Assembly (NCBI GenBank): GCA_964654205.1
Contig: CAZZHR010000002.1
Coordinates: 1,800 to 65,799, forward strand
DNA from: an uncultured Candidatus Saccharibacteria bacterium
GTDB taxonomy: Bacteria > Patescibacteriota > Minisyncoccia > Phycocordibacterales > UBA2100
Direction: 5' to 3'
Length of the DNA stretch: 64,000 nucleotides
The notes beneath the pieces are model-generated. The model made no database searches, had not been told where the DNA came from, and was given only the letters and a program-made list of their open reading frames with translations. Below are positions 15,521 through 47,310 of the stretch, one piece after another (the stretch's first letter is position 1; every line of letters starts with the position of its first letter). The position numbers and the translations under genes were made by a program.

Positions 15521-15532
15521 TATGCACTTTCT

Positions 15533-15563
15533 ATAGAAAATCGCCCCGGCCGAGACCGGGGCG
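15533..15563 (-). terminator. Intrinsic terminator of the small membrane protein gene
   Basis: CGCCCCGGccgagaCCGGGGCG followed by a T-run on the minus strand. Confidence 0.6.
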
Positions 15564-15588
15564 ACGATTCGCGGAAGGCGGTACGCAG

Positions 15589-15741
15589 TCAGGTACGCTG
15601 CCCAGCCATCTGGTTCCACTTGACGCCAGCGACGACGCCAGGGCCGAGGGCGAGACCGAGCGGGCCCGCGATGCCGAAACCGACCGCGCTGAACCCCACC
15701 ATCGCGACTCCCGCATACGCGGCACGAATGAACTTCGACAT
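15589..15741 (-). CDS. Small membrane protein (50 aa)
   Basis: MSKFIRAAYAGVAMVGFSAVGFGIAGPLGLALGPGVVAGVKWNQMAGQRT; RBS agggagaaaatcATG; own terminator. The longer 195-aa ORF call is an Arg-rich artefact. Confidence 0.45.
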   Translation of the reverse strand: MSKFIRAAYAGVAMVGFSAVGFGIAGPLGLALGPGVVAGVKWNQMAGQRT

Positions 15742-15814
15742 GATTTTCTCCCTTGAGCATACGCCCGCGTGCTCCCGCGAGCCCTGGAACTCTGCCACAT
15801 TCATTTCAAAAGCG

Positions 15815-24995: not shown

Positions 24996-25664
24996 TCATT
25001 TTTCAAGCCCCCGACGATTCTTTTTCCACTCATCGATCTTTGCGTGGTTGCCGCTCCTTAACACTGCCGGCACTTTGTACTTCTTTTTCTTCCACACAAG
25101 CACCTCCGGACGCGTATAGACCTCAGGCGACGACACGCGCGATGCTTCGAGCGATTCGGCTTTGCCGAGAACACCTGGTATGTGCCGCGCGATAGCATCT
25201 ATCATGGTGGCCGCGGGAAGCTCGCCGCCCGTGAGCACATACGGTCCGACGGAGACTTTCTTCGCCTTCAGTATCTTCTGCACGCGCGCATCGACACCCT
25301 CATAGTGGCCAGAGATGAAAACAATATCTTCCTTCTTTGCCAGCTTCACCGCCATCGCCTCGTCGAACTGTGCGCCATCAGTGGCGAAAAAGATTACTTC
25401 CGCTTTCCGCCGGCCGGCGGACTTGCCACGAGCCTTTTCAACCGCGCGGAGCATTGGCTCTGGTCGCATGACCATGCCCGGCCCTCCACCGTACGGACGT
25501 CGGTCAACCCGCTCTTCAGAGACGCGCCCCTTAGGCACAAATTTTTTTGGATCGTAGTAGGAGACACGAATCTTCTTTTTTTCCTGTGCTTTTCCGAGAA
25601 TCGACGCGTCGAGGTACGGACGAATCGCATCCGGGAAAAGCGTTACGATATGGAAGTGAATCAT
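24996..25664 (-). CDS. trmD: tRNA (guanine37-N1)-methyltransferase
   Basis: MIHFHIVTLFPD, RPYGGGPGMVM and the SPOUT knot region SGHYEGVDARV...LTGGELPA; start moved to MIHFHIV. Confidence 0.9.
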   Translation of the reverse strand: MIHFHIVTLFPDAIRPYLDASILGKAQEKKKIRVSYYDPKKFVPKGRVSEERVDRRPYGGGPGMVMRPEPMLRAVEKARGKSAGRRKAEVIFFATDGAQFDEAMAVKLAKKEDIVFISGHYEGVDARVQKILKAKKVSVGPYVLTGGELPAATMIDAIARHIPGVLGKAESLEASRVSSPEVYTRPEVLVWKKKKYKVPAVLRSGNHAKIDEWKKNRRGLEK

Positions 25665-25678
25665 ATATACTTTGGGCA

Positions 25679-25999
25679 ATGTTTGCGAAACTCCGCTCGT
25701 TCTTCGTGGCGTCACTCGTCGCGCTCTTCTTCCAGCTCGTAGTTATCTTTGTTTTTCAGATAATGTACCGAGGGTTGGATTGCGGATTGCTCGAACAAAG
25801 AGTCTGCTCGTTCCCTATCTTTCTCAAGGGTATTACCGAACTCGTCGCATCGATCAATATCTACAGCCTCGGAGCCCCGACAATACTTCTCGCACTCATC
25901 ATTGGGGCTGCGTGGCGTATTTATCGAGAACTTCGCAAGAGCGGTATGCGGCGGCGCGATTTTGTCGCCCCGTCGGCGCTCAACACTACTGACCTTTGA
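25679..25999 (+). CDS. Possible small two-TM membrane protein (106 aa), sitting where rimM would be expected
   Basis: MFAKLRSFFVASLVALFFQLVVIFVF... with moderate GC3 bias; the only plausible ORF in the 270-bp gap between trmD and khpA. Confidence 0.3.
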   Translation: MFAKLRSFFVASLVALFFQLVVIFVFQIMYRGLDCGLLEQRVCSFPIFLKGITELVASINIYSLGAPTILLALIIGAAWRIYRELRKSGMRRRDFVAPSALNTTDL

Positions 26000-26327
26000 G
26001 GTCGGTGATGATGTCGTCGACGGTCGTATCGCGAACGTACGGCTCAGAGGTACCAGAATCGCCCTGCGCATCCGCACGGCCACCCTCCGGCTCTTCTATC
26101 TTAAGGTTGACGCGCGCATCGTTCTTCATGCCCACCACGCGAAGCACGGTGCGGATTGCCTTGGCTGTCGCACCCGAGCGGCCGATGACCTTGCCCATGT
26201 CGTCGCGGTTGACGCTGAGCGTGAGGAGCACGCCCATCTCATCCACCGTGCGCGTAATCTTCACATCTTCCGGCTTGTCGACGAGTGCCTTTACTACGTA
26301 CTCGAGAAATGCCTGATCGCTTTCCAT
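25986..26327 (-). CDS. khpA: KH-domain RNA-binding protein (KhpA/YlqC-like, UPF0109)
   Basis: KH GxxG loop VIGRSGATAKAIRTVL; conserved position between rpsP and trmD. Confidence 0.75.
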   Translation of the reverse strand: MESDQAFLEYVVKALVDKPEDVKITRTVDEMGVLLTLSVNRDDMGKVIGRSGATAKAIRTVLRVVGMKNDARVNLKIEEPEGGRADAQGDSGTSEPYVRDTTVDDIITDLKGQ

Positions 26328-26400
26328 ATCTATCGTGCTATTCAGAGTAATGAAAACATTGTACGATTGCTGACATCGGGCGTCAACCTCACCTATCAGA

Positions 26401-27625: not shown

Positions 27626-29836
27626 CTATTTCGCCACCCTTGTCGCCTCTTCAAACTTTACGGACAGGAGCTTCGAGACGCCGTCGTTCGACATGGTGAC
27701 CCCGTAGAGTTCGCCCGCGGCCGCCATCGTGGCTCTGTTGTGCGTAATCACGATGAGCTGTGATTTCTCTCCAAGCTCGCGAATCATGTCGGCGTATCGC
27801 TTGCTGTTGGCCTCGTCGAGTGCGGCGTCCGTCTCGTCAAGAATCAAAAAAGGCGGCGGATTCACCTGCGTCATCGCGAATATCATGGCGATAGAGGTGA
27901 GCGCGCGTTCGCCGCCCGAGAGCACCTCGAGTCCGCGTATCTTCTTTCGTGGCAGCGACACGTCTATCGCGAGGCCGGCGTATATCTCATCTTCCTCGGC
28001 GACATCCATTTCATCTTCATCGTCGAATTCTTCTTTCTTGCCGCGTCTCGGCTCTTCGATGAAGAGCTTCGCCATGCCGCCCCCGAAGAGCTTCTCGAAG
28101 AATGTCTTGAGCGCCGTGTTGATGTGCTTGAGGCCGTCTTTAAAGCGCTCGTCAATCGTCTTTTCAAGCTCAGCGATTATTTCCTTGAGCTTTACCGCCG
28201 ATGTTTCGAGGTCGGCAAGTTCACGTGTCAGGAATTCGTCGCGCTCCTTGGTCTGATTGAATTCTTTGACCACCGCGTCACCGTTGCCGAGCCCGCTCTC
28301 CTCAATCTTTATCTTGAGCCGCTCGATCTCGCGGCGACGCTTCTCCTGTTCTCTCCTATCTTCCATCAGTGCGCCCTGCGGAATACCCTCTTTCTCCCAG
28401 CCGTGCACGGCCGTACCCACGAGCGCGATTCCCTCTCGCACCTCTTCTTCAAAGCGCTGCCGCAGCGCCGCGATGCTCTGCCTCGCAGCGCCGGTCGCAT
28501 TGAGCAAATTCTGTGCCTCGCGTATCTGACCTTCGAGTTCGATTGTTTCTCGCTCGGCAGCAAAAGACGCTTCGCGGATACGTGCGATTTCTGCGCGCAT
28601 GTCCTCGATTTCTTTCACCACGGACGCCTCTTCCCTCTGCTTCTTCTCGAGCGCGTCGCCAAGCTCTTCCACGTGCTTTTTCGCCTCGTGGTTGGTCACG
28701 GGCGCGGCTCCCGTGAGCCCTTCGATGAATGATCGGATGCGGTCGCGAATCGCGAGCAGTGTCGAACGGATGTTCGCGATATCGCCGTCTTCGGCCGCCT
28801 CGGCGATTTGCGCGTCGATTTCTCGAGCGAACTGTCGCACATGCGGTACTGCGACAATCTGCTCTACCGTCACGGTGTTGGCCTCTAGTGCTCCCTCGGC
28901 GCGTCCGAGCTCTCGCGCGATATCGCCGGATTGCCGACGCATCTCGACGAGCTTTGCTTCCCTCTCTTGCAGCTTTTCGTGCAACTCGTGTGCTCGCGAA
29001 GTCGCACCGCTCTCCCCCTTGCCCGCAATCCCGCTCGCCTCTTTGAGTCGGGCGGTGAGCTTCTTTACATCGGCATCATGTTCTATAGCCTCGTCGCGAA
29101 GCCTCACATCTTCCTGCGTAATCCATGCGTTCTCGCGTGCGAGGTAATCACCGAGTTTTTCCGCGAGGAGCGCTTTCATCTCACGCGCTTTCTCTATTTT
29201 TTCCACTTGCGTTCGAAGAAAGTTCAGGTGCGGCGCAATCTCGCGGCGCAGCGACTTCGTCTTGTCGATGTTGACGGCTGTTTCCTCGAGCTTTCGCTCG
29301 CTCTCAGCTTTTTTGTGCTGGTAGAGCTTGAGCCCGAGCGCGTCTTCTACCATCTCGCGACGCTCGCGCGGAGATGCATTGAGGATGCGGTCGGCCTCGC
29401 CTTGGGAGATTATCTGATAGCCAGAGCCGCCGATGTTGGCTCCCGCGAGAAGACGGATGACATCTTTGAGTCGCACGACCGAGCCGTTGAGCAAATACTC
29501 ATTCTGACCGTCGCGGTACACGACGCGTTCCACGACCACTTCGTTGAAATCGATATCCAGAAGCCGCTTCGAGTTGTCGAACGTTACCTTCACGCCCGCG
29601 CGATTCGCGCGGGCAAGGCCGGGGCTGCCGCCCCAAATGAGGTCCTCGCCCTTTTTCGAGCGCATACTCTTCATCGACTGCTCGCCAAGAACGAAGCGAA
29701 AACCCTCTGCCACGTTCGATTTGCCGGAGCCGTTGGGCCCGACGATGCCGGCTATGGGCGACGTGAAGACCATTTCGGTCTTCTTGCCAAAAGATTTAAA
29801 GCCGTTGAGCTCGATGGATTTGAGCGCGAGGAACAT
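27626..29836 (-). CDS. smc: SMC-family chromosome segregation ATPase, minimal form (736 aa)
   Basis: N-terminus LNGFKSFGKKTEMVFTSPIAGIVGPNGSGKSNVAEGFRFVLGEQSMKSMR (SMC Walker A head); long coiled coil; C-terminal LSGGERALTSIAMIFA...LILDETDAALD signature and Walker B. Confidence 0.75.
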   Translation of the reverse strand: MFLALKSIELNGFKSFGKKTEMVFTSPIAGIVGPNGSGKSNVAEGFRFVLGEQSMKSMRSKKGEDLIWGGSPGLARANRAGVKVTFDNSKRLLDIDFNEVVVERVVYRDGQNEYLLNGSVVRLKDVIRLLAGANIGGSGYQIISQGEADRILNASPRERREMVEDALGLKLYQHKKAESERKLEETAVNIDKTKSLRREIAPHLNFLRTQVEKIEKAREMKALLAEKLGDYLARENAWITQEDVRLRDEAIEHDADVKKLTARLKEASGIAGKGESGATSRAHELHEKLQEREAKLVEMRRQSGDIARELGRAEGALEANTVTVEQIVAVPHVRQFAREIDAQIAEAAEDGDIANIRSTLLAIRDRIRSFIEGLTGAAPVTNHEAKKHVEELGDALEKKQREEASVVKEIEDMRAEIARIREASFAAERETIELEGQIREAQNLLNATGAARQSIAALRQRFEEEVREGIALVGTAVHGWEKEGIPQGALMEDRREQEKRRREIERLKIKIEESGLGNGDAVVKEFNQTKERDEFLTRELADLETSAVKLKEIIAELEKTIDERFKDGLKHINTALKTFFEKLFGGGMAKLFIEEPRRGKKEEFDDEDEMDVAEEDEIYAGLAIDVSLPRKKIRGLEVLSGGERALTSIAMIFAMTQVNPPPFLILDETDAALDEANSKRYADMIRELGEKSQLIVITHNRATMAAAGELYGVTMSNDGVSKLLSVKFEEATRVAK

Positions 29837-30015: not shown

Positions 30016-30705
30016 TCACCACCCCTTTGCATCCAGCGCCTTCTGCGCGGCGTCTTGTTCTGCTTCTTGTTTGGAGCGGCCTTCTCCGACAGCAACCTGC
30101 GCCCCCCCGATGACCGAGGCTACGCGAAATGTGCGGTCGTGGTCAGGGCCTGTTTGGCTGACGAGTTGGTACGACGGCGTTACCCGCTCTTTCTCTTGCG
30201 AAATCTCCTGCAGTCGCGACTTGGCGTCTTGCCAGAGGCGCTTCGCTACTACCTCGTCGGTCTTGTGGAAGAGTTGCTTCGATATGAACTCTTTTGCAGC
30301 GTCATACCCGCTGTCGAGGTAGAGCGCCCCTATCACTGCCTCAAACGCGTTGGCGAGAATAATCTGCCGAGCCCTGCCCGTATCGCGCGCCTCCCCGCGC
30401 GAGAGCAGGAGGTACTCGTTCATGCCGAGGTCTGTCGCGCATTGCGCGAGTGACACCGTGTTCACGAGTGCTGCCCGATACGCGGTGAGTTCGCCCTCCG
30501 GCTTGTCGGGATACTTGTTGTACAAGAATTCCGTTACCACGAGTTCGAGAATGGCATCGCCCAAAAACTCCAAGCGCTCGTTGTGCTCTCTGCCATTACC
30601 CCGGTTCTCATTGAGGTATGAGCGGTGCGTAAATGCCTGCTCCAGGAGTGCACGATTGCGGAACGTGTAACTGATTTTCAATTCGAAGTTGTTGAAATCG
30701 GACAT
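30016..30705 (-). CDS. rnc: Ribonuclease III
   Basis: ERLEFLGDAILELVVTEFLY signature; C-terminal dsRBD. Confidence 0.9.
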   Translation of the reverse strand: MSDFNNFELKISYTFRNRALLEQAFTHRSYLNENRGNGREHNERLEFLGDAILELVVTEFLYNKYPDKPEGELTAYRAALVNTVSLAQCATDLGMNEYLLLSRGEARDTGRARQIILANAFEAVIGALYLDSGYDAAKEFISKQLFHKTDEVVAKRLWQDAKSRLQEISQEKERVTPSYQLVSQTGPDHDRTFRVASVIGGAQVAVGEGRSKQEAEQDAAQKALDAKGW

Positions 30706-30783
30706 ACCAGCGGAGGTTATAGCTTACAGGTTAGAGGGAATAGTAGATGCATTTACTAAAACCTACAACCTAAAGCCCGTCCA

Positions 30784-31695
30784 CTACTTCCGGTCTTTTT
30801 GCGCAAGCAGATTTATCGCACGCGTGACGACCGGCAATATGTCATCGTAAAAGTTCAAATCGCCGACTGAGGCGAGCGGGAACCACTGTGCATCGTCGAG
30901 GCCGCCCTCCTTTTTCAGCCTCAAATCCTGAAAGCTTGCCCGGGCGAGGTAGTACGTCGCATGCCGCTTCTTTTTGCCTCCGGCCGCGTTGCTATCGTTT
31001 GCCACGTATTCGTTCTCGCCCAGCTGATCCTCGACCTCTACATCGAGTCCGATTTCTTCCCTGACTTTGCGCTTCACGCCGTCGTGCTGCTGTTCGTCTT
31101 TCTGCAACTTGCCTTTCGAGAGCGTCCAATGGCCGAATATATCGTGCACGAGCGCGAGATACACCTCCTTTCCTTCACGTGCGTACACGACAGCACCTAT
31201 GAGCTCTTCGACAGGCATCTTGCCTCCTTTTTGCGACGGTTGCTTGCGCGCCACTCCCTCGTTCTTGCCCGGTTCGCCGAGCTCCACGTAGACTGCGCCA
31301 AGAACGCCGTTCACGAATCTTCCCGATGACGAGCTGCCGAAAGATTTCGCGAGCTCTATCGCCTCGTTGATAGCAACTTTTGCGGGCACCTGCGCCCTAT
31401 CGGCAAAGAGCAGCTCCGTAAGACCGAGCCTCAAAATGTTCCTGTCTATCGCAGCAATCTTCTCAATCGGCCACTCCGGTGCCGCGCGGACTATTACTTC
31501 GTCTATCTCCCTCTGCTTCGCGACGGCAGTCTGCAGCAGATTCTTCATAAAATTACTGTCGCTATCGCGTGCGCCAAATTCCTTGGAGTAATCGGCGAGA
31601 CGCCCGATGCACTCATCGAGACTCATCGCTGTATTTGAATCACGCTCGAAAAGCACTTGGAGGACTACGGAGCGCGCGAGGTGTCTATTTGCCAT
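30784..31695 (-). CDS. nusB: NusB antitermination factor fused to a C-terminal NUDIX hydrolase domain
   Basis: N-terminal 140 aa are NusB-like (ARSVVLQVLFERD...). The C-terminus carries the Nudix box GKLQKDEQQHDGVKRKVREEIGL (Gx5Ex7REVxEEIGL). Confidence 0.7.
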   Translation of the reverse strand: MANRHLARSVVLQVLFERDSNTAMSLDECIGRLADYSKEFGARDSDSNFMKNLLQTAVAKQREIDEVIVRAAPEWPIEKIAAIDRNILRLGLTELLFADRAQVPAKVAINEAIELAKSFGSSSSGRFVNGVLGAVYVELGEPGKNEGVARKQPSQKGGKMPVEELIGAVVYAREGKEVYLALVHDIFGHWTLSKGKLQKDEQQHDGVKRKVREEIGLDVEVEDQLGENEYVANDSNAAGGKKKRHATYYLARASFQDLRLKKEGGLDDAQWFPLASVGDLNFYDDILPVVTRAINLLAQKDRK

Positions 31696-31903
31696 ACCCG
31701 GTTAGTACAATTTCGGGTGACTCAGTGCGTAAGCTCCGCCGACCCAGTCGCGAAGAATCGTCATTCGATAATTGTTGGAATGCGCGTGTTCAATATTCAT
31801 ACTAAAGAGCATATTCGAAGTTGTCCTACCGAGCATGCGAACAAAGGAACTGTCCCACCAGTGTAGCAGGAATCAATAAAGGGCGAATGAACGCCGTGGA
31901 AAA

Positions 31904-32179
31904 CTACTTGGCCTCGGCTGTATCCTTATCTTTCGATTCGGTCTGCTGCCCAGAAGCTCGGAGCTCCTTTTCCTTTCGCTTGATGCGGCGCTGTTCGCGC
32001 TTGGCTCGCTCCACGACATCGATGACCACCTTGCCGCGGTAAAGACCCGTCTGAGGGTCCACACGGTGGCGCAGGTGCACGCCGCCCTTCTGGTCCACCG
32101 TGAGGCGTGCGGCAGAGAGACCATGATGGCTCCGGCGCTTTCTCGTCTTTGAGCGGTTTACCCGCATTCGTACTACCAT
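31904..32179 (-). CDS. rpmF: 50S ribosomal protein L32 with Lys/Glu-rich C-terminal tail
   Basis: NRSKTRKRRSHHGLSAARLTVDQKGGVHLRHRVDPQTGLYRGKVVI aligns to E. coli L32 (RSHDALT..LSVDKTSGEKHLRHHIT..GYYRGRKVI). Confidence 0.75.
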   Translation of the reverse strand: MVVRMRVNRSKTRKRRSHHGLSAARLTVDQKGGVHLRHRVDPQTGLYRGKVVIDVVERAKREQRRIKRKEKELRASGQQTESKDKDTAEAK

Positions 32180-32196
32180 AGTGGCAGCACTATACC

Positions 32197-32820
32197 TCAA
32201 CTTCTGGCGGACGCAAACCCCCGACAGAACGTCGATCGATGCAAGTCGGACAGGCCATGACGGCGTATTGCTTGGCGATGCCGAAGCGTCCCATACCCTT
32301 TATGGATGTCGAAAAAGTAGCGCTCGTACTCAAGAGCGTAGTCTTCCATGACCCTATCGCGGAGCACCTTGGCGACGATGGACGCAAGCGCAATCACCGG
32401 AATGCGCTCGTCGCCCCGCACGAACGACTCCTGGTCCCACACGTCGGAAACGCGCAACCCTGCATCGAGGAGCACATCGGTTTTCTCTGGACTCACACGG
32501 AGCTCCTGGAGCGCGACAGCTGCGGCTTGGCGCGCGGCATTCGCGATGCCTATCTCGTCGATGGTTTTCGCATCAACAAACGCGGCCGCGTGACGAAGCC
32601 GTCCGTGCGCCGCAATGTATTCAAAAAGTATGTCCCGCTGCTGTGCCGAGAGCTGTTTCGAGTCGCGGAGCCGCGGCGTACCTTTGCGCGTGATGAGCGC
32701 GAAGACTTCGCGCCAGTCGAAATCCTGGGGGCACAGTACGGCGCCGACACACACAGGTCCTGCGAGCGCTCCGCGGCCTGCCTCGTCGATACCTACACGG
32801 CACCTCATTGCACCCATCAT
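32197..32820 (-). CDS. rnhB: Ribonuclease HII
   Basis: MRCRVGIDEAGRGALAGPVCVGAV; start moved to the MMGAM cluster to avoid overlap with divergent dnaE. Confidence 0.8.
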   Translation of the reverse strand: MMGAMRCRVGIDEAGRGALAGPVCVGAVLCPQDFDWREVFALITRKGTPRLRDSKQLSAQQRDILFEYIAAHGRLRHAAAFVDAKTIDEIGIANAARQAAAVALQELRVSPEKTDVLLDAGLRVSDVWDQESFVRGDERIPVIALASIVAKVLRDRVMEDYALEYERYFFDIHKGYGTLRHRQAIRRHGLSDLHRSTFCRGFASARS

Positions 32821-32900
32821 AGCAGCAGGAAGAGAAAAAAACGTGCGGTGTATACTGCCCGTATGTCGCCCTCCTTCGCGAAAGCTATGGACGGGCAGGC

Positions 32901-35900
32901 GTGCGCATGAAAAACAATTTCGTACATTTGCATACCCACAGCCATTACTCCCTACTCGAAGCGCTCCCGAAGGTTGAAGACTTGGTCGCCGCTGCAAGGG
33001 CCGATGGCCAGACAGCGCTTGCGCTCACCGATGCTGGCAACATGTACGGCGCCATTGATTTTTACAAAGAGTGCAAAAAAGAGGGTTTGAAGCCGATTAT
33101 CGGCGTGGACTTCTTCGTTGCGCCGCGCACGAGGCACGACAAGGAGCACCGCATCGACGACGCGACCACGCGACTCGTGCTGCTCGCACAGAATGAGACG
33201 GGGTACAAAAATCTCATCCAACTTGTCTCCGCGTCGTACCTGGAAGGCTTCTACTACCGCCCGCGCGTCGATCGCGAACTTCTCGAGAAATACTCCGGCG
33301 GTCTTGTCGCGATTTTGCCCTCCTTCTCAGGCGAACACGCGAAGGCATTGAAAGACGGCCAAAATGCGAAGGCGCGCGACGCTCTCGAGTACTTCAAGAA
33401 GCTTTACGGCGCTCCATCAGCCGGCGGATGTTACGCAGAGATTACGCACCACCCCGACATCGACGGGCACGAAGAGCGCATGGCCAAGATTGCCGAGCTT
33501 GCAAAAGAGGCTGGCCTCCCCCTCGTGGCATCGGGCGACACCTACTACCTCAAGCAGGATGATGCGGTAGCGCGCGAACTCGTCAACAAGATACGTACCG
33601 CGAGCACGCTCAACCGAGACCTCGCGGAAAACCTTCCGGATTTTTCGTTTACAAGTCGGGAGAAAGCATCGCACGTTTTTCGTGATGTTCCTGAGGCCAT
33701 AGACAACACGGTAAAAATCGCCGAGTCTTGCAATCTCGAGCTCACACTTGGCAAGGCTATTTTTCCTGTCTTCCCCATTCCCGAAAACACCACGGCCGAT
33801 GATGAATTGCGCTCCCTCGCTGAGAAGGGAATTCCTGAGCGCGGCTTCGCGGACACGCCGGAGTTGCGTGCACGCATGGATTACGAACTCAGCATCATCA
33901 AGCAGAAAGGCTACGCGTCGTACTTTCTCATCGTAGCAGACCTCCTAGGTCACGCGGCGAGCGTTGGCATTTTCACCAACACGAGAGGCTCTGCTGCGGG
34001 TTCGCTCGTCTCCTACCTCTGCGGCATAACGACCGTCGACCCCATAGCATTCAACATGCCATTCGAGCGCTTCTTGAATCCGGAGCGCCCTTCTGCGCCG
34101 GATATCGACATGGATATCGCCGACAACCGCCGCGACGAGCTTATCGAGTACGCACGCGAAAAATACGGCAAAGACCACGTCGTGCAGATAGGTACATTTG
34201 GCACGATGATGGCGCGCGCTGCCGTGCGCGACGTCGCCCGCGCGCTCGGACACAGCTACGCACTCGGCGATACCGTGGCCAAGCTCATCCCTTTTGGCAA
34301 GCAAGGGTTCCCCGTGACCATCAAGGGCGCGCTCGCCGACACCCCTGAGCTCGCGGAGCTCTACAAACGCGACCCGGACGCGCGGGAGATTCTGGATCTC
34401 GCGCAAAAAATCGAAGGCAATGCGCGGCATGTCGGAGTGCACGCGGCGGGTGTCGTGATAGCCCCATCGCCCGTCACCGAGTACGCGCCGATTCAGCTCG
34501 ACCCGAAGGGGGGCAAAACAATCACACAGTACGACATGTATTCGATTGCCGACGAGTACGGCGGCGTCGGCCTCCTCAAGTTCGACTTCCTCGGCCTCAC
34601 CAACCTTTCCGTACTTGCCGACTCTGTCGCCCGCGTGAGAGCTCGCCTCGGCACCGAGGTCGACCTCGAGAAAATCCCGCTTGATGATAGCAGGGTGTAC
34701 GAGATGCTCGCCGCAGGTCGAACACTCGGCGTCTTCCAAATGGCAGGAAGCGGCATGACTGCGTACCTCAAAGACTTGCAGCCCACCGTCATCCACGACC
34801 TCAACGCGATGGTCGCCCTCTACCGCCCGGGCCCCATGGCATTTATTCCCGAGTACATTCAGCGCAAGCGCAATCCCGCGCTCGTGAAGTACCTCGACCC
34901 GCGCATGGAATCGATTCTCAAGCCCACGTACGGCGTCCTCATCTACCAGGACGACGTCATGATGATGGCGGTGCAACTCGCAGGATACTCGTGGGGAGAG
35001 GCGGATAAGTTCCGCAAAGCGATGGGTAAGAAAATTCCGGAGGAGATGGCAAAGCAGAAAGAGCACTTCCTCTCAGGCTGCATCTCGCATGGGATGAAAG
35101 AGAAGGCGGCGCAGGAGCTCTGGCAGCAGATAGAGACTTTCGCCGCATACGGTTTCAACAAAGCGCACGCAGCTTCATACGGCAATCTCGCGTACAAGAC
35201 CGCGTACATGAAAGCCAACTTCCCTGTCGACTATATGGCGGCCGTCCTCACCGCCGACGCGGGCGATGTCGAAAAAATCGCGGAGGTCGTGGCCGAGTGC
35301 AAACAAATGGGCATCACGATCTTACCCCCGTCGGTCAACGAGAGCATGGGCACGTTCACCGTCATCGACGACAAGACGATACGGTTCGGGCTCTATTCGA
35401 TAAAGAATTTCGGCGTCGGCGTCGCCGACTCCATCATTGCGGCACGCGATACGGCCGGACGCTATGGGGACATCTCAGACTTTATCGCGCGGAATCCCGA
35501 CAAGAATCTCAACAAAAAATCGCTTGAGTCGCTCATACAGAGCGGAGCTATGGACGAACTCGGGGAGCGCGGCCAGTTGCTCGCCAATATAGAGAAGCTC
35601 CTTCAGTATCACAAAGAGTACATGAAGACCCCCCAGGATCAGGGGTCGCTCTTCGGCGCGATGAGCTCGCCGACATCAAAAGTAACGTTCAAGGATGTTT
35701 CTCCCGCGACGCTCGACGAGCGCCTCGCGTGGGAAAAAGAGCTCCTCGGCCTCTACATCTCAGGCCACCCGCTCGACAAGCATGCAGCAAAGCTGCAGAA
35801 CGCGAAAAACAGCATCAGGCACGCGAAGGAGAATCTAAAGGGAGTCGAGACGGTAATAGCGGGTTTCGTGGAGAACGTGCAATCAATCCTTACGAAGAAC

Positions 35901-36086
35901 GGGGAGCGCATGGCGTTCCTCAAGGTCGCAGACCTCTCCGACACCATCGAGGTCGTTGTCTTCCCGCGTACGCTCAAAGAGCAGGAGTCGCTATTTACTG
36001 CGGGAAATTGCATCGCACTCAAAGGCAAAATATCCGAGCGCAATGGCCAGGCGAGCTTCGTGGCCGAAAAAGCAAAAGCCTTATAG
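32901..36086 (+). CDS. dnaE: DNA polymerase III subunit alpha (compact, 1061 aa)
   Basis: PHP domain FVHLHTHSHYSLLEA; polymerase core; C-terminal OB fold. Confidence 0.9.
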   Translation: MRMKNNFVHLHTHSHYSLLEALPKVEDLVAAARADGQTALALTDAGNMYGAIDFYKECKKEGLKPIIGVDFFVAPRTRHDKEHRIDDATTRLVLLAQNETGYKNLIQLVSASYLEGFYYRPRVDRELLEKYSGGLVAILPSFSGEHAKALKDGQNAKARDALEYFKKLYGAPSAGGCYAEITHHPDIDGHEERMAKIAELAKEAGLPLVASGDTYYLKQDDAVARELVNKIRTASTLNRDLAENLPDFSFTSREKASHVFRDVPEAIDNTVKIAESCNLELTLGKAIFPVFPIPENTTADDELRSLAEKGIPERGFADTPELRARMDYELSIIKQKGYASYFLIVADLLGHAASVGIFTNTRGSAAGSLVSYLCGITTVDPIAFNMPFERFLNPERPSAPDIDMDIADNRRDELIEYAREKYGKDHVVQIGTFGTMMARAAVRDVARALGHSYALGDTVAKLIPFGKQGFPVTIKGALADTPELAELYKRDPDAREILDLAQKIEGNARHVGVHAAGVVIAPSPVTEYAPIQLDPKGGKTITQYDMYSIADEYGGVGLLKFDFLGLTNLSVLADSVARVRARLGTEVDLEKIPLDDSRVYEMLAAGRTLGVFQMAGSGMTAYLKDLQPTVIHDLNAMVALYRPGPMAFIPEYIQRKRNPALVKYLDPRMESILKPTYGVLIYQDDVMMMAVQLAGYSWGEADKFRKAMGKKIPEEMAKQKEHFLSGCISHGMKEKAAQELWQQIETFAAYGFNKAHAASYGNLAYKTAYMKANFPVDYMAAVLTADAGDVEKIAEVVAECKQMGITILPPSVNESMGTFTVIDDKTIRFGLYSIKNFGVGVADSIIAARDTAGRYGDISDFIARNPDKNLNKKSLESLIQSGAMDELGERGQLLANIEKLLQYHKEYMKTPQDQGSLFGAMSSPTSKVTFKDVSPATLDERLAWEKELLGLYISGHPLDKHAAKLQNAKNSIRHAKENLKGVETVIAGFVENVQSILTKNGERMAFLKVADLSDTIEVVVFPRTLKEQESLFTAGNCIALKGKISERNGQASFVAEKAKAL

Positions 36087-36119: not shown

Positions 36120-37871
36120 ATGCACCGATATATGGCCGAACTTGAGCATATCCGGCACACGCTCGCGCACCTCCTCGCACAGGCCATACTCGAGAGCTAC
36201 CCCAAGGCAAAACTCACGCTCGGCCCCGCCGTCGACAACGGTTTCTACTACGATGTCGACTTCGGTGAGGACAAAGTCCCGGAGGAAAGCCTCAAGACAT
36301 TTCAAAAGACGATGAAAAAGCGCCTCTCATCGTGGAAAGAGTTCACGCATGAGGAAGTCTCCAGGGAAAAAGCCCTCGAAATCTTTGCCGGCAACGAGTA
36401 CAAGGCCGAGCTCATCGAGGAAATCGCCGAGCGCGGCGAGACAATCACGCTCTACACCTGCGGCGGATTTACCGACCTGTGCCGCGGCGGTCACGCAGAG
36501 AATCCCGCACAAGACATCGACCCCGACAGCTTCAAACTCGACCGCATCGCGGGCGCATACTGGCGGGGCGATGAAAAAAATAAGATGCTCACCCGCATCT
36601 ACGGCCTCGCATTTGCGAGCAAGGAGGAACTGGATGCCTACCTCGTCCAGCGCGAAGAGGCCAAGAAGCGCGACCACAGGAAGATTGCACGCGAGCAGGA
36701 TCTGCTTGTCTTTTCCGACCTCGTCGGAAGTGGCATGCCCATGTATACGCCTAAGGGCAACATCGCGCGCAATGCCATCGTCAATTACTCGCGCGAACTC
36801 AATGCAAAGCTGGGCTTTGGCGAAGTACACACACCCAACATCAACAAAGCGGAGCTCTTCAAACTCTCAGGCCACTACGACGCATACAAGGAAGACATGC
36901 TCTCTGTCCGTTCGCAGTACGTGAGTGATGAAATGTTTCTCAAGCCGATGAACTGCCCGCAGCACACGCAGATCTTTGAATCGCAGCCGCGCAGTTACCG
37001 CGACCTCCCTATCCGATATGCCGACTTCGCGAATCTGTACCGCGACGAGAGGCCGGGCGAACTTTCAGGCCTCACGAGACTTCGCGCGTTTGCTCAGGAC
37101 GATGGGCACATCTTTTGCCGCGAAGACCAGATTGAGCAAGAGGTCTCTGCAGTTCTCGGCGCGATTCAAGAAGCACTCGCGACATACAAGATTGGATACT
37201 GGATGCGGCTCTCGCTGAGCGACCCGCAGAACCCGGCCAAGTATCTCGGTGATCCTGCGGTATGGCAGCGCGCCGAAGCAATCATGCGCGACCTTCTTAC
37301 CAAAAAAGGCATCGAGCACAAAGAAGCAGTCGGCGAGGCAGCTTTCTACGGCCCGAAAATCGACATCATGGCCGTCGACGCGATAGGACGAGAGTGGCAG
37401 ATTTCGACCGTACAGCTCGACTTTGTCCAACCATCACGCTTCCAGCTCGAGTACACGGCAGAAGACGGCGGCAAACAAACGCCAGTCATGATACATCGCG
37501 CTCTCATCGGTTCGCCCGATAGATTCCTCGGCATTCTCATCGAGCACTATGCGGGCGCGTTCCCCCTCTGGATGGCACCGGTGCAGCTCAGCATCCTTCC
37601 TGTCTCTGAAACGCACTCGGAGTATGGGCGCAGCGTCGCGCAGCAGCTTAAAGATGCGGGGCTCCGCGTGGAACTCGACGAGACAGATAGTCTCGGCAAG
37701 CGCATCCGCACCATGAAGATGCAGAAAGTGCCGCTCTACATCGTCGTCGGCGACCAGGAGGTCGACGCAAAGACCGTGACGGTGGAAGACCGTGCGGGAG
37801 AAAAGCGCACGCTCGCACTCCCTGCACTTATCGACGAACTCAAGCAAAAAATCTCCTCCCGCTCCCTCTAG
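36120..37871 (+). CDS. thrS: Threonine--tRNA ligase (short form lacking TGS N-terminus)
   Basis: Class II core and anticodon-binding domain; editing-domain HxxxH context; collinear with ThrS from the second N-terminal domain onward. Confidence 0.85.
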   Translation: MHRYMAELEHIRHTLAHLLAQAILESYPKAKLTLGPAVDNGFYYDVDFGEDKVPEESLKTFQKTMKKRLSSWKEFTHEEVSREKALEIFAGNEYKAELIEEIAERGETITLYTCGGFTDLCRGGHAENPAQDIDPDSFKLDRIAGAYWRGDEKNKMLTRIYGLAFASKEELDAYLVQREEAKKRDHRKIAREQDLLVFSDLVGSGMPMYTPKGNIARNAIVNYSRELNAKLGFGEVHTPNINKAELFKLSGHYDAYKEDMLSVRSQYVSDEMFLKPMNCPQHTQIFESQPRSYRDLPIRYADFANLYRDERPGELSGLTRLRAFAQDDGHIFCREDQIEQEVSAVLGAIQEALATYKIGYWMRLSLSDPQNPAKYLGDPAVWQRAEAIMRDLLTKKGIEHKEAVGEAAFYGPKIDIMAVDAIGREWQISTVQLDFVQPSRFQLEYTAEDGGKQTPVMIHRALIGSPDRFLGILIEHYAGAFPLWMAPVQLSILPVSETHSEYGRSVAQQLKDAGLRVELDETDSLGKRIRTMKMQKVPLYIVVGDQEVDAKTVTVEDRAGEKRTLALPALIDELKQKISSRSL

Positions 37872-40224: not shown

Positions 40225-40635
40225 TCACGAAGACGGCTGCGGGCTGACCGGCCTGCTCTTGCAGGTGTTGTCGGGGTGGAGCCAGCCATACTGCCCCGCG
40301 TGCGGCGAGTTCGCCGGTGCCATGCAGCGGCCGTTGGGCAAAGCTGTCGGGCGCGTCGGATCCGCGACAGGCGGCGGCACGTAGGCATAGCCCGGGACAC
40401 GTGCGAGCGGCAAAGCGCAGATGCCAGGCCGGTAGGCATGCGGCCGCACCTTGTAACGCTCGTACGCGTACTTCGGCTTATAGCGCCGCGGGGGCACATA
40501 CCGCCGCGGCTTGCAGCTGCGATGATGGAAGCCGAACTCGGGGCCACAGTAACCGGCCAGAGCAACCGGAGCCGAGAACATGGTACTTCCGAGCGCCGCG
40601 GCAGCCGCCGCAGCTATCAGAGCCAACTTCTTCAT
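40225..40635 (-). CDS. Secreted basic Pro/Tyr/Arg-rich protein with conserved C-terminal Cys motif domain, paralog A
   Basis: Signal peptide MKKLALIAAAAAAALGSTMFSAPVALA; C-terminus LPNGRCMAPANSPHAGQYGWLHPDNTCKSRP is shared with 40840-41493; RBS GGAGG. Confidence 0.65.
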   Translation of the reverse strand: MKKLALIAAAAAAALGSTMFSAPVALAGYCGPEFGFHHRSCKPRRYVPPRRYKPKYAYERYKVRPHAYRPGICALPLARVPGYAYVPPPVADPTRPTALPNGRCMAPANSPHAGQYGWLHPDNTCKSRPVSPQPSS

Positions 40636-40771
40636 GGTGGAGGTCCTCCGTTGAAACGATCGCGAAGCCGGGCGATGAGGCGTCAGCCTCGATATCATGA
40701 ACACCCAGATTCTTGCCGCGCATTAATTCACTCTTGAGCGGCACTGTCAAGTAGTACGCCATATTGATTAT

Positions 40772-40812
40772 GAAGAAAAGCTTAAGGGGGGCAGAGCAAG
40801 CTCTGTCCCCCC
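40772..40812 (-). terminator. Intrinsic terminator of paralog B gene
   Basis: GGGGGGCAGAGCaaGCTCTGTCCCCCC, a 12-bp stem, followed by a T-rich tract on the minus strand. Confidence 0.8.
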
Positions 40813-40839
40813 TTTGTGAACGCAACCGGCGTTCGATCG

Positions 40840-41493
40840 TCAGTAGTAGGCGTAACGCACCGCCGCAGCAGCCGGCGGCCTTCCCTTGCAGGTGCCATCC
40901 GGATGGATGAAGCCCATCTGCCCAGCGTGCGGCGAATTCGCCGGCGCCATGCAGCGCCCGTTCGGGAGCGGTGCCGCGGCATTGACGCCGCAGCCACGCG
41001 CACCGCACGTCGGCGCCATCGCACGCGGACCGCAGTTGACGCAGTTCACACGCGGGCGCGAGTCGGAGCGGATGATGTTCGTGTTGGGCGGGTTCGGAAC
41101 GACGATATTGATCGGCCGTTCCAGAACCGCCTTCGCGATTTCCGCCGCCTGCTGACGTGCAGCTGCCGTCTCGGTCGCCGCGTTCAGCACGCGGACCGTG
41201 TCGTTGGACTGCCGCACGGCGGCGTCCGACTTCCGGATGTCGAGATCGGTGCGAACGACTTCCGTGCAGAGGTCGTTGGTGCAGCGCTCGTAGTTGGCAC
41301 TGCCGACCATCGTGTTCACCACGAAGTAGCCGCCGAGGCCGAGGCCGACGACGACAACGAGCGTGATGAGCAGGTTGAAGAGCGGCGTGCTGTCGGAATC
41401 CTGGAGCGGCACCCACCTGTCCTGGCGGGCTGAAGCTCGCTCCTCTCCAGTCTCGGTGTTGAAGTAACCGGTAGTGCGACGACGTCCGAACAT
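40840..41493 (-). CDS. Membrane-anchored protein with the same C-terminal Cys motif domain, paralog B
   Basis: Signal-anchor LFNLLITLVVVVGLGLGGYFVV; C-terminus LPNGRCMAPANSPHAGQMGFIHPDGTCKGRP; RBS AGAAGGAGAA. Confidence 0.65.
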   Translation of the reverse strand: MFGRRRTTGYFNTETGEERASARQDRWVPLQDSDSTPLFNLLITLVVVVGLGLGGYFVVNTMVGSANYERCTNDLCTEVVRTDLDIRKSDAAVRQSNDTVRVLNAATETAAARQQAAEIAKAVLERPINIVVPNPPNTNIIRSDSRPRVNCVNCGPRAMAPTCGARGCGVNAAAPLPNGRCMAPANSPHAGQMGFIHPDGTCKGRPPAAAAVRYAYY

Positions 41494-41590
41494 GGCGTTC
41501 TCCTTCTGAGTTGCCTAGTTGCTATGGGTTGCGTTTGGAACTCGAGGCAGAAATCGTGGCATTGCTGCCTCGAATTCCACTCGTAGTATC

Positions 41591-41618
41591 ATTATAACAA
41601 ATACAATACGTTTGTCAA
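41591..41618 (-). promoter_or_regulatory. Consensus sigma-70 promoter: TTGACA, 16-nt spacer, TATAAT (minus strand), with a roughly 100-nt structured leader
   Basis: Leader contains the hairpin GGAATTCGAGGCAG...CTGCCTCGAGTTCC (14 bp, one mismatch). Confidence 0.65.
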
Positions 41619-41642
41619 GTATAAAATTTGGCTCAATAGAGC

Positions 41643-41676
41643 CAAAAGACTGATGCCCCGCATTTTCACGCGGGGC
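41643..41676 (-). terminator. Intrinsic terminator of the 41707-42384 gene
   Basis: GCCCCGCattttcacGCGGGGC followed by a T-run on the minus strand. Confidence 0.65.
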
Positions 41677-41706
41677 ACCTTTCATGAGCTTATCCGACTC
41701 CGGAAC

Positions 41707-42384
41707 CTACGTCGGCTGAGGCACGAGCGCCGCAGGCGGAGCACCAGCTGCCGCCTGAGCGTTGACCCGCAGCTGGTCTGCTGCGAGGCTAATCAGACGC
41801 GCCTCGTCGATGGCGGGAATGTCCGGCTCGACGTATCCATCGGGAGCCACGTCGAGAAACACTGTCTCTTGCAGCGGACCGATTCGCCGGAGCCCCCGCT
41901 CGTAGAACGGAAGCAGCGGTCCGAGGCCGTAGCTCTGCTGGGCGGCTGGGTCCATTTGCACGTTGATGAGCCCTGCATCGGCGATTCGCTGAAGCAGAAA
42001 CACGTCCACGTACGCATACGCCGTCAGCATGATCAGGATTTGCAGCGCGTTTGAGGTTTGCAGCACAATCCAGATATCAGCGCCGCCGAAGCTCATCTGG
42101 GCGATGACCGCAAGCGACGTGAGCGAGAGGCTCCACAGCGCGACCGTCGACGTCTTCTTGTCGATGGAATTGAGCGTGGGACTCGGCTTCACGAAGATTG
42201 CGAGCGTGTTGGAGACGAGGTAGGTCACCCAGACCGTCGTGCCGAAGTTGATCAGCACGGAGGCCCAGTACACGACGCTTTGCGCCTGCGCGAATGCCGG
42301 AATCGCAAAGTACGAGAGCGGCGCCCACAGGGCGACGAGCAAACCGGACACAATCGAGACGATTTTGACAATAACGCTTGTCAT
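41707..42384 (-). CDS. Polytopic membrane protein (4 TM) with soluble C-terminal tail
   Basis: Hydrophobic helices; no recognisable domain; TTGACA-17-TATACA promoter at 42453-42481. Confidence 0.55.
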   Translation of the reverse strand: MTSVIVKIVSIVSGLLVALWAPLSYFAIPAFAQAQSVVYWASVLINFGTTVWVTYLVSNTLAIFVKPSPTLNSIDKKTSTVALWSLSLTSLAVIAQMSFGGADIWIVLQTSNALQILIMLTAYAYVDVFLLQRIADAGLINVQMDPAAQQSYGLGPLLPFYERGLRRIGPLQETVFLDVAPDGYVEPDIPAIDEARLISLAADQLRVNAQAAAGAPPAALVPQPT

Positions 42385-42477
42385 CGAGTTCTCCTGCCGA
42401 GTCTTGTGTTGCGTTGGATTCGGAGCCCAGCATCATGCCGGGAACTCTTCTATGTATACATCAAAACGCGCGCCCTG

Positions 42478-42744
42478 TCAAGTGTGGTCTGTTCCTCTCC
42501 TCTCCGTCTTTTCGATGTCTTGAATTATCTTCAAACCTTTCTCCTGAATGTCGGCTATTGCCGCTGCTTCAGTATTCTGCTTCTGAAGGGCAGCAAAGTA
42601 CACATTGTTGAGTATTCTGCCCTGAAGCTCATCTGGAAGCTTTTCGAATTCTTCTGCCACAAGCTTCTGAGCAGCCGCCTGATCACCCTTTGATAAAAGT
42701 TCGTGGAGTCTGTCGTATAGCTGTCCGAGATTGTCTTCGGTCAT
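42478..42744 (-). CDS. Small helical cytoplasmic protein (88 aa)
   Basis: Low-GC ORF with balanced composition, immediately downstream of the 697-aa gene. Confidence 0.45.
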   Translation of the reverse strand: MTEDNLGQLYDRLHELLSKGDQAAAQKLVAEEFEKLPDELQGRILNNVYFAALQKQNTEAAAIADIQEKGLKIIQDIEKTERRGTDHT

Positions 42745-42754
42745 GCAGAGGGTG

Positions 42755-44848: not shown

Positions 44849-44896
44849 GCGTGAATTTTATCACGATGTAACGCCATTATTTCAATGTACGTGCAT

Positions 44897-44927
44897 AGAA
44901 AAAGGGCGAGCCGAAGCTCGCCCTTTC
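44897..44927 (-). terminator. Intrinsic terminator
   Basis: aaaaaGGGCGAGCcgaaGCTCGCCCtttcc. Confidence 0.8.
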
Positions 44928-44949
44928 CGTCGCACTAGGGCGACAAAGA

Positions 44950-45774
44950 TCAGGTCTTGGCACCGATGGAGATGCCTTTCCCGTTGTAAGCCGGGTTGCC
45001 CTTGGCAGCTTCCGCAGCAGCGGCGGCGGCGATCTTCTGTCGCTCCTCCATGTCTTCCATGAAGAGGCGTTCGAAGAACTTGTCGTAGCCTGTCGCGTCC
45101 TGTTCGAGGAGCTGTGTCTTGCCGCCGATCAGGCGGCACGACTTGCCGTTGACATCGCGCACGATGACGACGGCGCCCTCAGGGATACGCCAGAAGTCGA
45201 AGTTGACCGGGGAGTACGGAAGTCCACGGATGTTCTTGCCGTGGACACTCCCGATCTTCTCGGCCGCAGCCGTGCCGAAATCCGCTTTCTCTTCGCGGCC
45301 TTCGGCGATCTTGAACGCGCCGGACTTCTTGTCGAAGTTGTACGAGCCGTGAGGCTTCACTTCGCCCTTGCTCGCGATGTCCATGTAGTCGCCCATCATG
45401 CCCTGCGGACCGAACTGGAAGCCAGTCCGAATGAGCACGATCCAGTCGTTGCCATCCTTGTGGGAGGCGAGGACCTTGCGGGTCTTGCCGTCGCCGATGT
45501 CCTGATCGATCGCGCTCGCGCGGATGATCTTGTTGCGCTGGTCGAACAGCGGGCGATCGGTCAGCAGTGCCGGGACGACTGATGCGCCCTTGCTGAGCTT
45601 CCCGTTGCGTCCGATGCCGCCGACCACCACGGACGGCAGCGCGATTTTCGCGACGGAATCCGGCAACAGGTCAGACCTGATACCGGTGGTCAGACCCTGA
45701 CCGCGGGGCATGAAGAAGTACAAGTTGGCGTCCTTCGCGGTGCCAACCTGGTGTTCAGCGGACTGACTGCGCAT
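44950..45774 (-). CDS. Hypothetical protein (274 aa)
   Basis: Intact ORF with high GC3; flanked by intrinsic terminators; no signal peptide; no assignable domain. Confidence 0.55.
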   Translation of the reverse strand: MRSQSAEHQVGTAKDANLYFFMPRGQGLTTGIRSDLLPDSVAKIALPSVVVGGIGRNGKLSKGASVVPALLTDRPLFDQRNKIIRASAIDQDIGDGKTRKVLASHKDGNDWIVLIRTGFQFGPQGMMGDYMDIASKGEVKPHGSYNFDKKSGAFKIAEGREEKADFGTAAAEKIGSVHGKNIRGLPYSPVNFDFWRIPEGAVVIVRDVNGKSCRLIGGKTQLLEQDATGYDKFFERLFMEDMEERQKIAAAAAAEAAKGNPAYNGKGISIGAKT

Positions 45775-45895
45775 TTGGTGTGCTCCTTAAGCTGCGCTTC
45801 TGGTGAGATCTCCGAGGAGACCAGAGCCCTATGCTCCACCCTTGATGGTATCATATTATCTAGAAATGTCAATATATGGCTCAAGTACCTGTCCA

Positions 45896-45931
45896 ATATA
45901 AAAGACAAAGCGCCGCGGTTGCCCGCGGCGC
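45896..45931 (-). terminator. Intrinsic terminator
   Basis: GCGCCGCGGttgcCCGCGGCGC followed by TTTGTCTTTTAT on the minus strand. Confidence 0.8.
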
Positions 45932-45958
45932 TGAAAGATAGCTTGCCTTGCGAATAGT

Positions 45959-46546: not shown

Positions 46547-46610
46547 TATTCGCTCCCCCTCGGGGAGCTTCTAGCGCACGTTGTGCGCTTTTATGAGGCG
46601 CGTGTCAAGC

Positions 46611-47306: not shown

Positions 47307-47310
47307 ACGT

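Follow-up and report, generated by a model that had tools for sequence, protein, structure and literature searches.

A clade-wide NusB-Nudix fusion protein of Paceibacteria/Parcubacteria with a variant and repeatedly eroded Nudix box

Few bacterial transcription factors are as conserved as NusB, which is generally seen as an adaptor with one domain. In the 64,000-nt stretch of contig CAZZHR010000002.1 analysed here (the window), the minus strand carries, between the genes for ribosomal protein L32 and RNase III, a single gene whose 303-residue product joins a NusB domain to a C-terminal Nudix domain (nusB::nudix; residue numbers below are those of this product). We found that the fusion is real, old and clade-wide in the Paceibacteria/Parcubacteria of the Candidate Phyla Radiation (CPR), and that across this family the Nudix fold is conserved while its catalytic motif has been lost repeatedly in different lineages. 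The parts of the gene are as follows, with the basis of each assignment in brackets.

30784..31695, minus strand: complete nusB::nudix open reading frame, 303 codons plus stop (open reading frame list, two Pfam domains in frame, collinear homologues)
31276..31695, minus strand: NusB domain, residues 1-140, all-helical (Pfam, TIGR01951, AlphaFold2, Foldseek, invariant columns)
31204..31275, minus strand: inter-domain linker, residues 141-164, a conserved GEPGK junction and then a variable, Lys-rich tether predicted to be disordered (AlphaFold2, conservation)
30787..31203, minus strand: Nudix domain, residues 165-303, of the diadenosine tetraphosphate (Ap4A)/diadenosine polyphosphate (ApnA) hydrolase type (Pfam, profile against PDB, Foldseek)
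31045..31113, minus strand: variant Nudix box, residues 195-217, GKLQKDEQQHDGVKRKVREEIGL (G-x5-E-x7-R-K-U-x-E-E-x-G-U; translation read directly)
31066..31068, minus strand: codon AAA for Lys210, at the Mg-coordinating Glu position of REUxEE (sequence)

The reading frame opens with ATG and is uninterrupted, and no stop or frameshift separates the NusB and Nudix halves when 30784..31695 is read through. Pfam places NusB (PF01029) on residues 7-135 (E=2.7e-30, 105.9 bits against a cutoff of 23.1) and NUDIX (PF00293) on residues 167-277 (E=1.5e-11, 44.8 bits against a gathering score of 21.1). Because the NusB chains solved in the PDB stand alone, at 139-156 residues, a two-domain NusB is unusual among characterised proteins. 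An initial annotation of this DNA had described a complete NusB and a C-terminal Nudix domain in one polypeptide, and had contrasted it with a standalone canonical NusB; the two Pfam domains in one frame and the lengths of the PDB chains bear out both statements. The 64-kb window holds no second NusB-like open reading frame and no related Nudix open reading frame.

Residues 1-140 are a bona fide NusB. They pass the NCBIfam equivalog model for NusB (TIGR01951, residues 4-137, 114.6 bits against a cutoff of 88.35), and the N-terminal sequence MANRHLxRS is invariant in the family alignment. In the AlphaFold2 model this half forms seven helices with a predicted local distance difference test score (pLDDT) of ~90, and Foldseek against the PDB matched it to 3r2c_B (template modelling score (TM) 0.87, root-mean-square deviation (rmsd) 2.0 A) and 1tzt (TM 0.85). 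By homology, this half presumably also functions as a NusB.

The best 120 matches to the full protein, drawn from NCBI, JGI, ENA and Logan assemblies, are 80-99% identical to it and ~303 residues long, and all 120 carry both Pfam domains; those that are named are annotated as 'NusB' of Kaiserbacteria, Paceibacterota or the Patescibacteria group. A further 120 listed homologues, at ~50-56% identity, came from a search with a profile built on diverse members; both domains are again present in 120 of 120, and the names include Nomurabacteria and Minisyncoccia. When one genome was taken per species, at least 593 species-level genomes were found to encode a relative (593 of 600 pattern matches), and in each of the best 80 of these the match runs from residue 1 to ~300. 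Both the check for an interruption between the domains and the survey of related genomes that the initial annotation had proposed thus came out the same way: the two domains lie in one collinear protein of ~300 residues in all 240 listed homologues, and they are fused in the best 80 genomes.

Searched alone against 1.84 billion representatives at 50% identity, the Nudix half gave only 651 matches at E<=1e-3 and 128 at E<=1e-10. Among the best 150 of these matches, 39 are full-length proteins of 270-360 residues with an N-terminal NusB, at identities down to ~26-30%. The best 'standalone' match, P0128, has the linker motif MGEPDS at its start, so that it too probably derives from a fusion of which it is a fragment. 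Other layouts also occur in this Nudix subfamily. P0212 (379 residues) has an RK box and an N-terminal part that by eye resembles DnaA-C or a sigma-r4-like helix-turn-helix, in P0187 (577 residues) a long N-terminal stretch that includes a cold-shock-like segment precedes NusB and then Nudix, and in P0253 (855 residues) and P0254 (1074 residues) the Nudix domain is C-terminal. The partners in these four proteins appear once again to be nucleic-acid-binding domains.

The Nudix half belongs to the Ap4A/ApnA-hydrolase branch of the superfamily, with Dcp2 next. Among PDB sequences, a profile made from 20 Nudix halves ranked first the Aquifex Ap4A hydrolase (3i7u, E=5.9e-21), followed by the Thermus Ap6A hydrolase Ndx1 (1vc8, E=6.9e-15), Chlamydia CT771 (4ilq, E=5.3e-13), human NUDT2 (3u53, E=7e-13) and the C. 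elegans Ap4A hydrolase (1kt9, E=7.6e-13), with Dcp2 at E=5e-12 and mycobacterial Rv2985 and MutT1 at ~1e-10. Foldseek of the predicted Nudix half, a beta-sheet with the box helix at residues 203-215, returned 3i7u (TM 0.88) and 1vc8 (TM 0.84) and also CT771, 1KTG and MutT1/Rv2985; RppH is absent from its top 50 matches. The equivalog models for RppH (NF001936, 20.4 against 118 bits; NF001937, 15.2 against 139; NF001938, 12.2 against 116) and for MutT/MutT1 (NF052459, 26.8 against 475 bits; TIGR00586, 15.1 against 97.9; NF008044, 18.6 against 148) all score far below their cutoffs. It is this agreement of the profile and fold rankings, together with the failure of the RppH, MutT and MutT1 models, that assigns the domain to the ApnA-hydrolase type.

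The canonical Nudix motif is G-x5-E-x7-R-E-U-x-E-E-x-G-U (PMC6061791). The box of the query keeps this spacing, reading G195-x5-E201-x7-R209-K210-V211-R-E213-E214-I-G216-L217, with Lys in place of the first Glu of REUxEE. The R-K-U-x-E-E pattern is found in 119 of 120 close homologues, and K210 in 113 of the 113 aligned clade members, so the substitution is no sequencing error. The initial annotation had called the box intact. Its motif is indeed present at residues 195-217, but both the direct reading of RKVREE and the family statistics given below speak against an intact box, and careful alignment puts the clade-wide Lys at a catalytic Glu, the equivalent of E53 of RppH. In E. coli RppH the motif spans residues 38-60, which makes E53 the Glu of RE, and the standard catalytically dead form of the enzyme is E53A (PMC6061791). 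The catalytic Mg2+ of NUDT9 (REFGEE) is coordinated by the first Glu, and changing the motif to RILGEE abolishes activity; the NUDT9-H domain of human TRPM2 (RILRQE) binds ADP-ribose (ADPR) but does not cleave it, and when a sea-anemone domain was given the equivalent double mutation its KM stayed within twofold while kcat fell to ~1% (PMC6461439, PMC4974056).

Loss of box residues extends well beyond the query clade. Among 40 representative fused proteins (the query and 39 clusters at 50% identity), all five box residues (E201, R209, E210, E213 and E214) are present in 6, one is missing in 12, the query included, and two to five are missing in 22. The non-catalytic core of the same 40 proteins is nearly invariant: W190 is found in 40, K194 in 39, T191, D185, Y248 and W271 in 38 each, Y283 and G167 in 37 each, and Y230 in 35, with Phe in three more. 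According to the alignments these are the residues common to the solved ApnA hydrolases (W-x-x-P/S-K-G, W-T-x-x-K-G in the fusion, and the Y/W/F positions). The counterparts of Y230 and Y283 in the C. elegans and human Ap4A hydrolases probably sandwich the adenine ring, although a literature search on stacking by Tyr76 and Tyr121 of the C. elegans enzyme found no paper.

A species-level set of 81 sequences, consisting of the query and the best 80 of the at least 593 species genomes, gives a similar result. The full canonical set of box residues is present in 25 of the 81 and Glu at position 210 in 28; elsewhere this position holds K, V, I, A, S, G or N, the changes being spread over several tiers of identity and often accompanied by loss of E201. 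In one subclade, GHIExDATPExGVxRV[VI]KEELGL, neither E201 nor E210 is left. In the central family cluster the box is mostly canonical, with RE in 86 of 120 members, a KR swap in ~21 and RK in 12. Another subclade carries a 5-residue insertion within the box (GKIGDxPxIxNET-VEEGT-REIKEE) that lengthens the G-x5-E spacing; its members (L027, L032, L033, L045, L048, L049, L052, L063, L067, L071, L074, L075 and L077) nearly all read REIKEE, L045 reads RK, and apart from this spacing the members look canonical.

Both halves of the protein are under purifying selection. Mean pairwise identity in the close clade is 0.858 for NusB, 0.656 for the linker and 0.833 for Nudix. In a codon comparison of the window gene with orthologous loci, in which synonymous change is saturated (proportion of synonymous differences, pS, 0.66-0.81), the proportion of nonsynonymous differences (pN) is 0.10-0.13 for Nudix and 0.07-0.15 for NusB at loci L002-L006, and 0.25-0.30 against 0.11-0.14 at loci L007-L012, so that at depth the Nudix half changes about twice as fast. 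For the Nudix half in the close clade, the pN of 0.10-0.13 stands against a pS of 0.73-0.81. We rejected a decaying appendage or pseudogene-like tail, as pN lies far below pS and conservation within the clade equals that of NusB.

The two domains are predicted to be joined by a disordered tether of ~20 residues. In the AlphaFold2 model, built on a 97-sequence alignment (mean pLDDT 85.2), residues 141-157 have pLDDT <50, and the predicted template modelling score (pTM) is 0.53 although both domains are confidently folded. The GEPGK junction and a K-x-P-x-E motif at the start of the Nudix domain are conserved and the stretch between them is variable. A structure prediction of the domain interface, suggested in the initial annotation, thus returned no fixed NusB-Nudix interface, and the Nudix domain is therefore modelled on a flexible tether.

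Two neighbours of nusB::nudix are conserved with it:

30016..30705, minus strand: rnc (RNase III), 78 bp downstream of nusB::nudix (Pfam Ribonucleas_3_3, Ribonuclease_3, dsrm)
31904..32200, minus strand: rpmF (ribosomal protein L32), upstream of nusB::nudix (Pfam Ribosomal_L32p)

The order on the minus strand is rnhB, rpmF, nusB::nudix, rnc and an smc-like gene, with rpsP and trmD further on. The string from rnhB to smc is conserved in 76-77 of the best 80 related loci: the next gene downstream is rnc in 76 of these genomes, and the next gene upstream is rpmF in 77. For E. coli, a leader/spacer duplex near boxA/boxC is described as the RNase III site for excision of pre-16S rRNA, along with a joint effect of Nus factors and RNase III on 30S biogenesis (PMC6614801 and its reference 42). 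Because RNase III cuts beside boxA/boxC in E. coli, the association of nusB::nudix with rnc makes biological sense. The 64-kb window contains two tRNAs and no rRNA, nusA, nusG or rpsJ. In the 208-bp leader of nusB::nudix, at 31811-31799 on the coding (minus) strand, TGCTCTTTA is identical to bases 1-9 of the E. coli boxA consensus. We rejected boxA autoregulation of the gene: the window-wide count is 9, with 9.7 expected by chance, of 77 leaders of orthologues only 2 contain the exact core, and when a single mismatch is tolerated the count rises to 24, as opposed to 15 in the antisense control, at scattered positions.

The interpretation we favour, with slightly less than even confidence, is that the Nudix half is a NusB-tethered module that binds an adenine-type nucleotide or an RNA 5' end and whose hydrolytic activity is weak or absent in the query clade. 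By homology, the NusB half would bind S10 (NusE) and the boxA of nascent rRNA leaders within the antitermination/folding complex, and the tether would carry the Nudix domain near the NusB-boxA site. There the module may bind a dinucleoside polyphosphate such as Ap4A or, alternatively, the 5'-polyphosphate or nucleoside-tetraphosphate (Np4)-capped end of the nascent transcript. Hydrolysis would be slow or absent in the query clade and is probably kept in the third or so of lineages with a canonical box. What our analyses show is the architecture, its distribution, the class of the Nudix domain, the erosion of the box and the selection acting on it; that a ligand is bound, which ligand this is and whether antitermination or processing by RNase III is affected are inferences.

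A box that erodes around a conserved core is the classic pattern seen when a hydrolase fold has been recruited for binding, and NUDT9-H and CFIm25/NUDT21 are precedents. CFIm25/NUDT21 is an inactive Nudix subunit of an RNA-processing factor, and its binding of Ap4A excludes RNA (PMC7705103). Np4A caps are established on bacterial RNA, from which they are removed by Nudix (RppH) and ApaH enzymes (PMC7044304, PMC8833179), and this makes an Np4-type ligand plausible. Universal retention of the domain, its conserved non-catalytic core and the repeated and varied loss of its metal-binding residues all argue against a dispensable passenger enzyme. The intact RppH-like or decapping enzyme assumed in the initial annotation is weakened by the Lys at the E53 equivalent, the RppH score of 20.4 against 118 bits and the family-wide erosion of the box; of the two links proposed there, the evidence agrees better with one to a nucleotide signal than with one to the chemistry of RNA 5' ends.

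Several observations weigh against a binding module of little activity. E201, R209, E213 and E214 are all kept in the query clade, and in the species-level set E214 is kept in 80 of 81 sequences and the EE pair in 71, a retention for which selection on a residual or altered catalysis could be responsible. Since about a third of the lineages are canonical, hydrolysis may be ancestral and may still be the core function. Lys210 itself could have assumed a phosphate-contacting role. Finally, the aromatic residues are placed in a putative nucleotide pocket by alignment with ApnA hydrolases and by analogy with their structures.

The four box residues kept in the query clade and the canonical third of lineages leave room for the possibility that the domain is an active enzyme, namely an RppH-like 5' pyrophosphohydrolase, an Np4/NAD-decapping enzyme or an Ap4A hydrolase, that NusB brings to the nascent rRNA 5' leader. 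We consider this possible though rather unlikely, and grade no differently its corollary that the 5' end is prepared for processing together with the co-encoded RNase III. The nearest solved relatives are active ApnA hydrolases and then the decapping enzyme Dcp2, the removal of Np4A caps by RppH and ApaH offers a substrate (PMC7044304, PMC8833179), the query keeps four of the five box residues with the full box in 25 of 81 species, and adjacency to rnc is conserved. However, the position whose mutation to Ala abolishes RppH activity is Lys throughout the clade, and the equivalent change in NUDT9-type domains costs ~99% of kcat. Moreover, Glu210 is missing in 53 of 81 species, many lineages that lack two to five box residues keep the domain nonetheless, and the RppH equivalog is missed by a wide margin.

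A more specific form of the binding-module interpretation, which we regard as quite unlikely, makes the Nudix module a sensor of Ap4A/Np4N alarmones or of Np4/triphosphate 5' ends that gates the capacity of NusB to assemble the rRNA antitermination/folding complex. Ribosome synthesis in these bacteria with minimal genomes would then be directly under stress-nucleotide control, and slow residual hydrolysis by variants with an eroded box could act as a reset timer.

A fusion of convenience, in which a housekeeping Nudix hydrolase that degrades ApnA or sanitises (deoxy)nucleoside triphosphates was joined to NusB as the genome was streamlined and acts independently of it, its activity decaying where it is not needed, is in our judgement distinctly unlikely. 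The disordered linker without a predicted interface, the MutT1/Rv2985-type enzymes among the structural neighbours and the twofold faster change of the Nudix half at depth are all compatible with it. Yet the domain is kept in the best 80 genomes and all 240 listed homologues, box-depleted lineages included, and genomes so small should delete a dispensable enzyme. The near-invariance of the non-catalytic residues and a pN far below pS are also at odds with such a passenger, as is a Nudix family that is compact and found largely in fused form.

Decidedly improbable, to our mind, is a purely structural subunit, comparable to SuhB in E. coli, in which the Nudix fold provides a protein-protein or RNA-chaperone surface of the antitermination complex and has no nucleotide ligand. 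The eroded catalytic box would be expected of it, but the near-invariant residues are those common to ligand-binding ApnA hydrolases (W-x-x-P-K-G and the Y/F positions) and do not form a new surface patch, E214 and R209 are mostly kept, and no interface within the chain is predicted. That two adjacent genes were joined by a sequencing or assembly error is refuted, and can be given practically no credence, because a continuous protein of ~300 residues is present in hundreds of independent NCBI, JGI, ENA and Logan assemblies.

Further observations concern the surroundings of the gene. The smc-like gene downstream of rnc (27626-29836, minus strand) encodes 736 residues, far below the ~1200 of a typical SMC, with SMC_N at 5-721 and no hinge domain by Pfam; it is conserved beside rnc in most related loci and may be a shortened or hinge-less SMC typical of the clade. 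Upstream of rpmF, the longest open reading frame of rnhB (32197-32997, minus strand; 266 residues) has RNase_HII at 68-258 and an N-terminal extension of ~60 residues without a Pfam match. This extension overlaps the start of the divergent dnaE (32901-36086, plus strand) by 97 bp, and the true start of rnhB is therefore probably an internal Met. L001, the representative genome of another species, is 98.3% identical to the window over nusB::nudix and rnc (window 30018-31697, L001 5999-7678; 1680 bp, gapless). The flanking dnaE/rnhB and smc are ~84-85% identical, the rpmF-nusB leader does not align, and other islands of high identity lie at 36131-36767 (thrS, 97.6%) and 25662-26341 (93.5%). In the 98% block the Nudix half shows no difference, every amino-acid change lying in NusB. 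Such a mosaic points either to a recent recombination event that moved the two-gene cassette from one related lineage to another or to chimeric binning of a metagenome-assembled genome.

The rest of the window is core CPR housekeeping, with rpoB/rpoC, rpoD, dnaG, uppS, tsaD, gyrB, pheT and aminoacyl-tRNA synthetases. Amid these genes, 40478-47958 forms an island without assigned function, in which open reading frames of 312, 225, 697, 274, 195 and 291 residues on both strands match nothing in Pfam at E<=1e-5; beyond it lie genes for a protein with a CARDB domain (48057-49031) and one with a PaaX_M/Cas2-like domain (49157-49729). TsaD (3281-4483, plus strand; 400 residues) matches Pfam in two stretches, suggesting an insertion, and DnaG (13799-15760, minus strand) has ~85 extra N-terminal residues ahead of its zinc ribbon; both may be clade traits.

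Full-text literature searches found no description of a NusB-Nudix fusion. Both domains are well-known families and the proteins are already in public databases under the name NusB, so the architecture is a variant of known families and no new kind. Nevertheless, a large uncultivated radiation, the Paceibacteria/Parcubacteria with at least 593 species-level genomes encoding a relative, uses a two-domain NusB, and the family offers a natural series from probable enzyme to probable pseudoenzyme on the machinery that transcribes rRNA. Should the domain bind alarmones of the Ap4A type, or 5' ends that are capped or triphosphorylated, dinucleoside-polyphosphate and Np4-cap biology would be linked to rRNA synthesis, and such a link could be tested on a small soluble protein. 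If the domain is a sensor, it would feed a new regulatory signal into a transcription complex that is universally conserved, and even as a mere passenger it would correct the annotation and provide a clade marker for CPR genomics.

Among known systems, the ApnA hydrolases are closest to the Nudix half: aq_158 (3I7U), Ndx1 (1VC8), CT771 (4MPO), NUDT2 (3U53), the C. elegans enzyme (1KTG) and M. tuberculosis Rv2985 (9CXX). They are its best profile (E 6e-21 to 1e-12) and fold (TM 0.76-0.88) matches, and they share with it the W-x-x-P/S-K-G motif before the box, the aromatic positions Y248, W271 and Y283, and the EE pair. The Glu altered in their substrate-trap mutants (Ndx1 E50Q, NUDT2 E58A) lies, from the PDB descriptions and the alignments, at the EE-pair position that the query keeps. 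They differ in being standalone with a canonical REUxEE, whereas the query is fused to NusB and has Lys for the first Glu, and the box is degenerate in most of the NusB-Nudix family. RppH and Dcp2 belong to the same superfamily, Dcp2 to the neighbouring branch (profile E=5e-12), and offer a conceptual tie to RNA 5'-end recognition; RppH differs in its equivalog models, which the query fails, and in its essential E53, where the query has Lys. As in TRPM2 NUDT9-H and CFIm25/NUDT21, the Nudix fold would here have outlived the Glu that coordinates Mg and would serve to bind a ligand or RNA. Those two are, however, eukaryotic, work with other partners and come from other Nudix branches (NUDT9-H from the ADPR pyrophosphatase type, CFIm25 from NUDIX_2, whose model PF13869 matches the query only at E=0.16), and binding by the query domain is put forward by analogy with them.

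On the NusB side, the proteins of Aquifex aeolicus (3R2C, in a NusB-NusE-BoxA complex), Thermotoga maritima (1TZT) and E. coli have the same fold (TM 0.85-0.87, rmsd 2.0 A), and the query gene likewise lies in a housekeeping neighbourhood of ribosome and RNA-processing genes; what the query adds is 160 residues of tether and Nudix domain. A precedent for a NusB-fold N-terminal domain joined to an RNA-directed enzyme domain is RsmB/Sun, the 16S rRNA m5C967 methyltransferase. RsmB models match residues 7-136 of the query (E=3e-12), that is, through their N-terminal domain only; the score of 46.1 bits stays below the RsmB equivalog cutoff of 319, and Pfam and NCBIfam find no methyltransferase domain in the query. 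Moreover, the C-terminal partner in RsmB is an S-adenosylmethionine-dependent methyltransferase and its N-terminal domain is NusB-like without being a NusB equivalog, while the query passes the NusB equivalog cutoff. SuhB of the E. coli rRNA transcription antitermination complex (rrnTAC) offers the functional parallel of an enzyme-fold protein that joins a NusB/boxA-dependent complex, although it does so as a separate polypeptide and with an inositol-monophosphatase (IMPase) fold.

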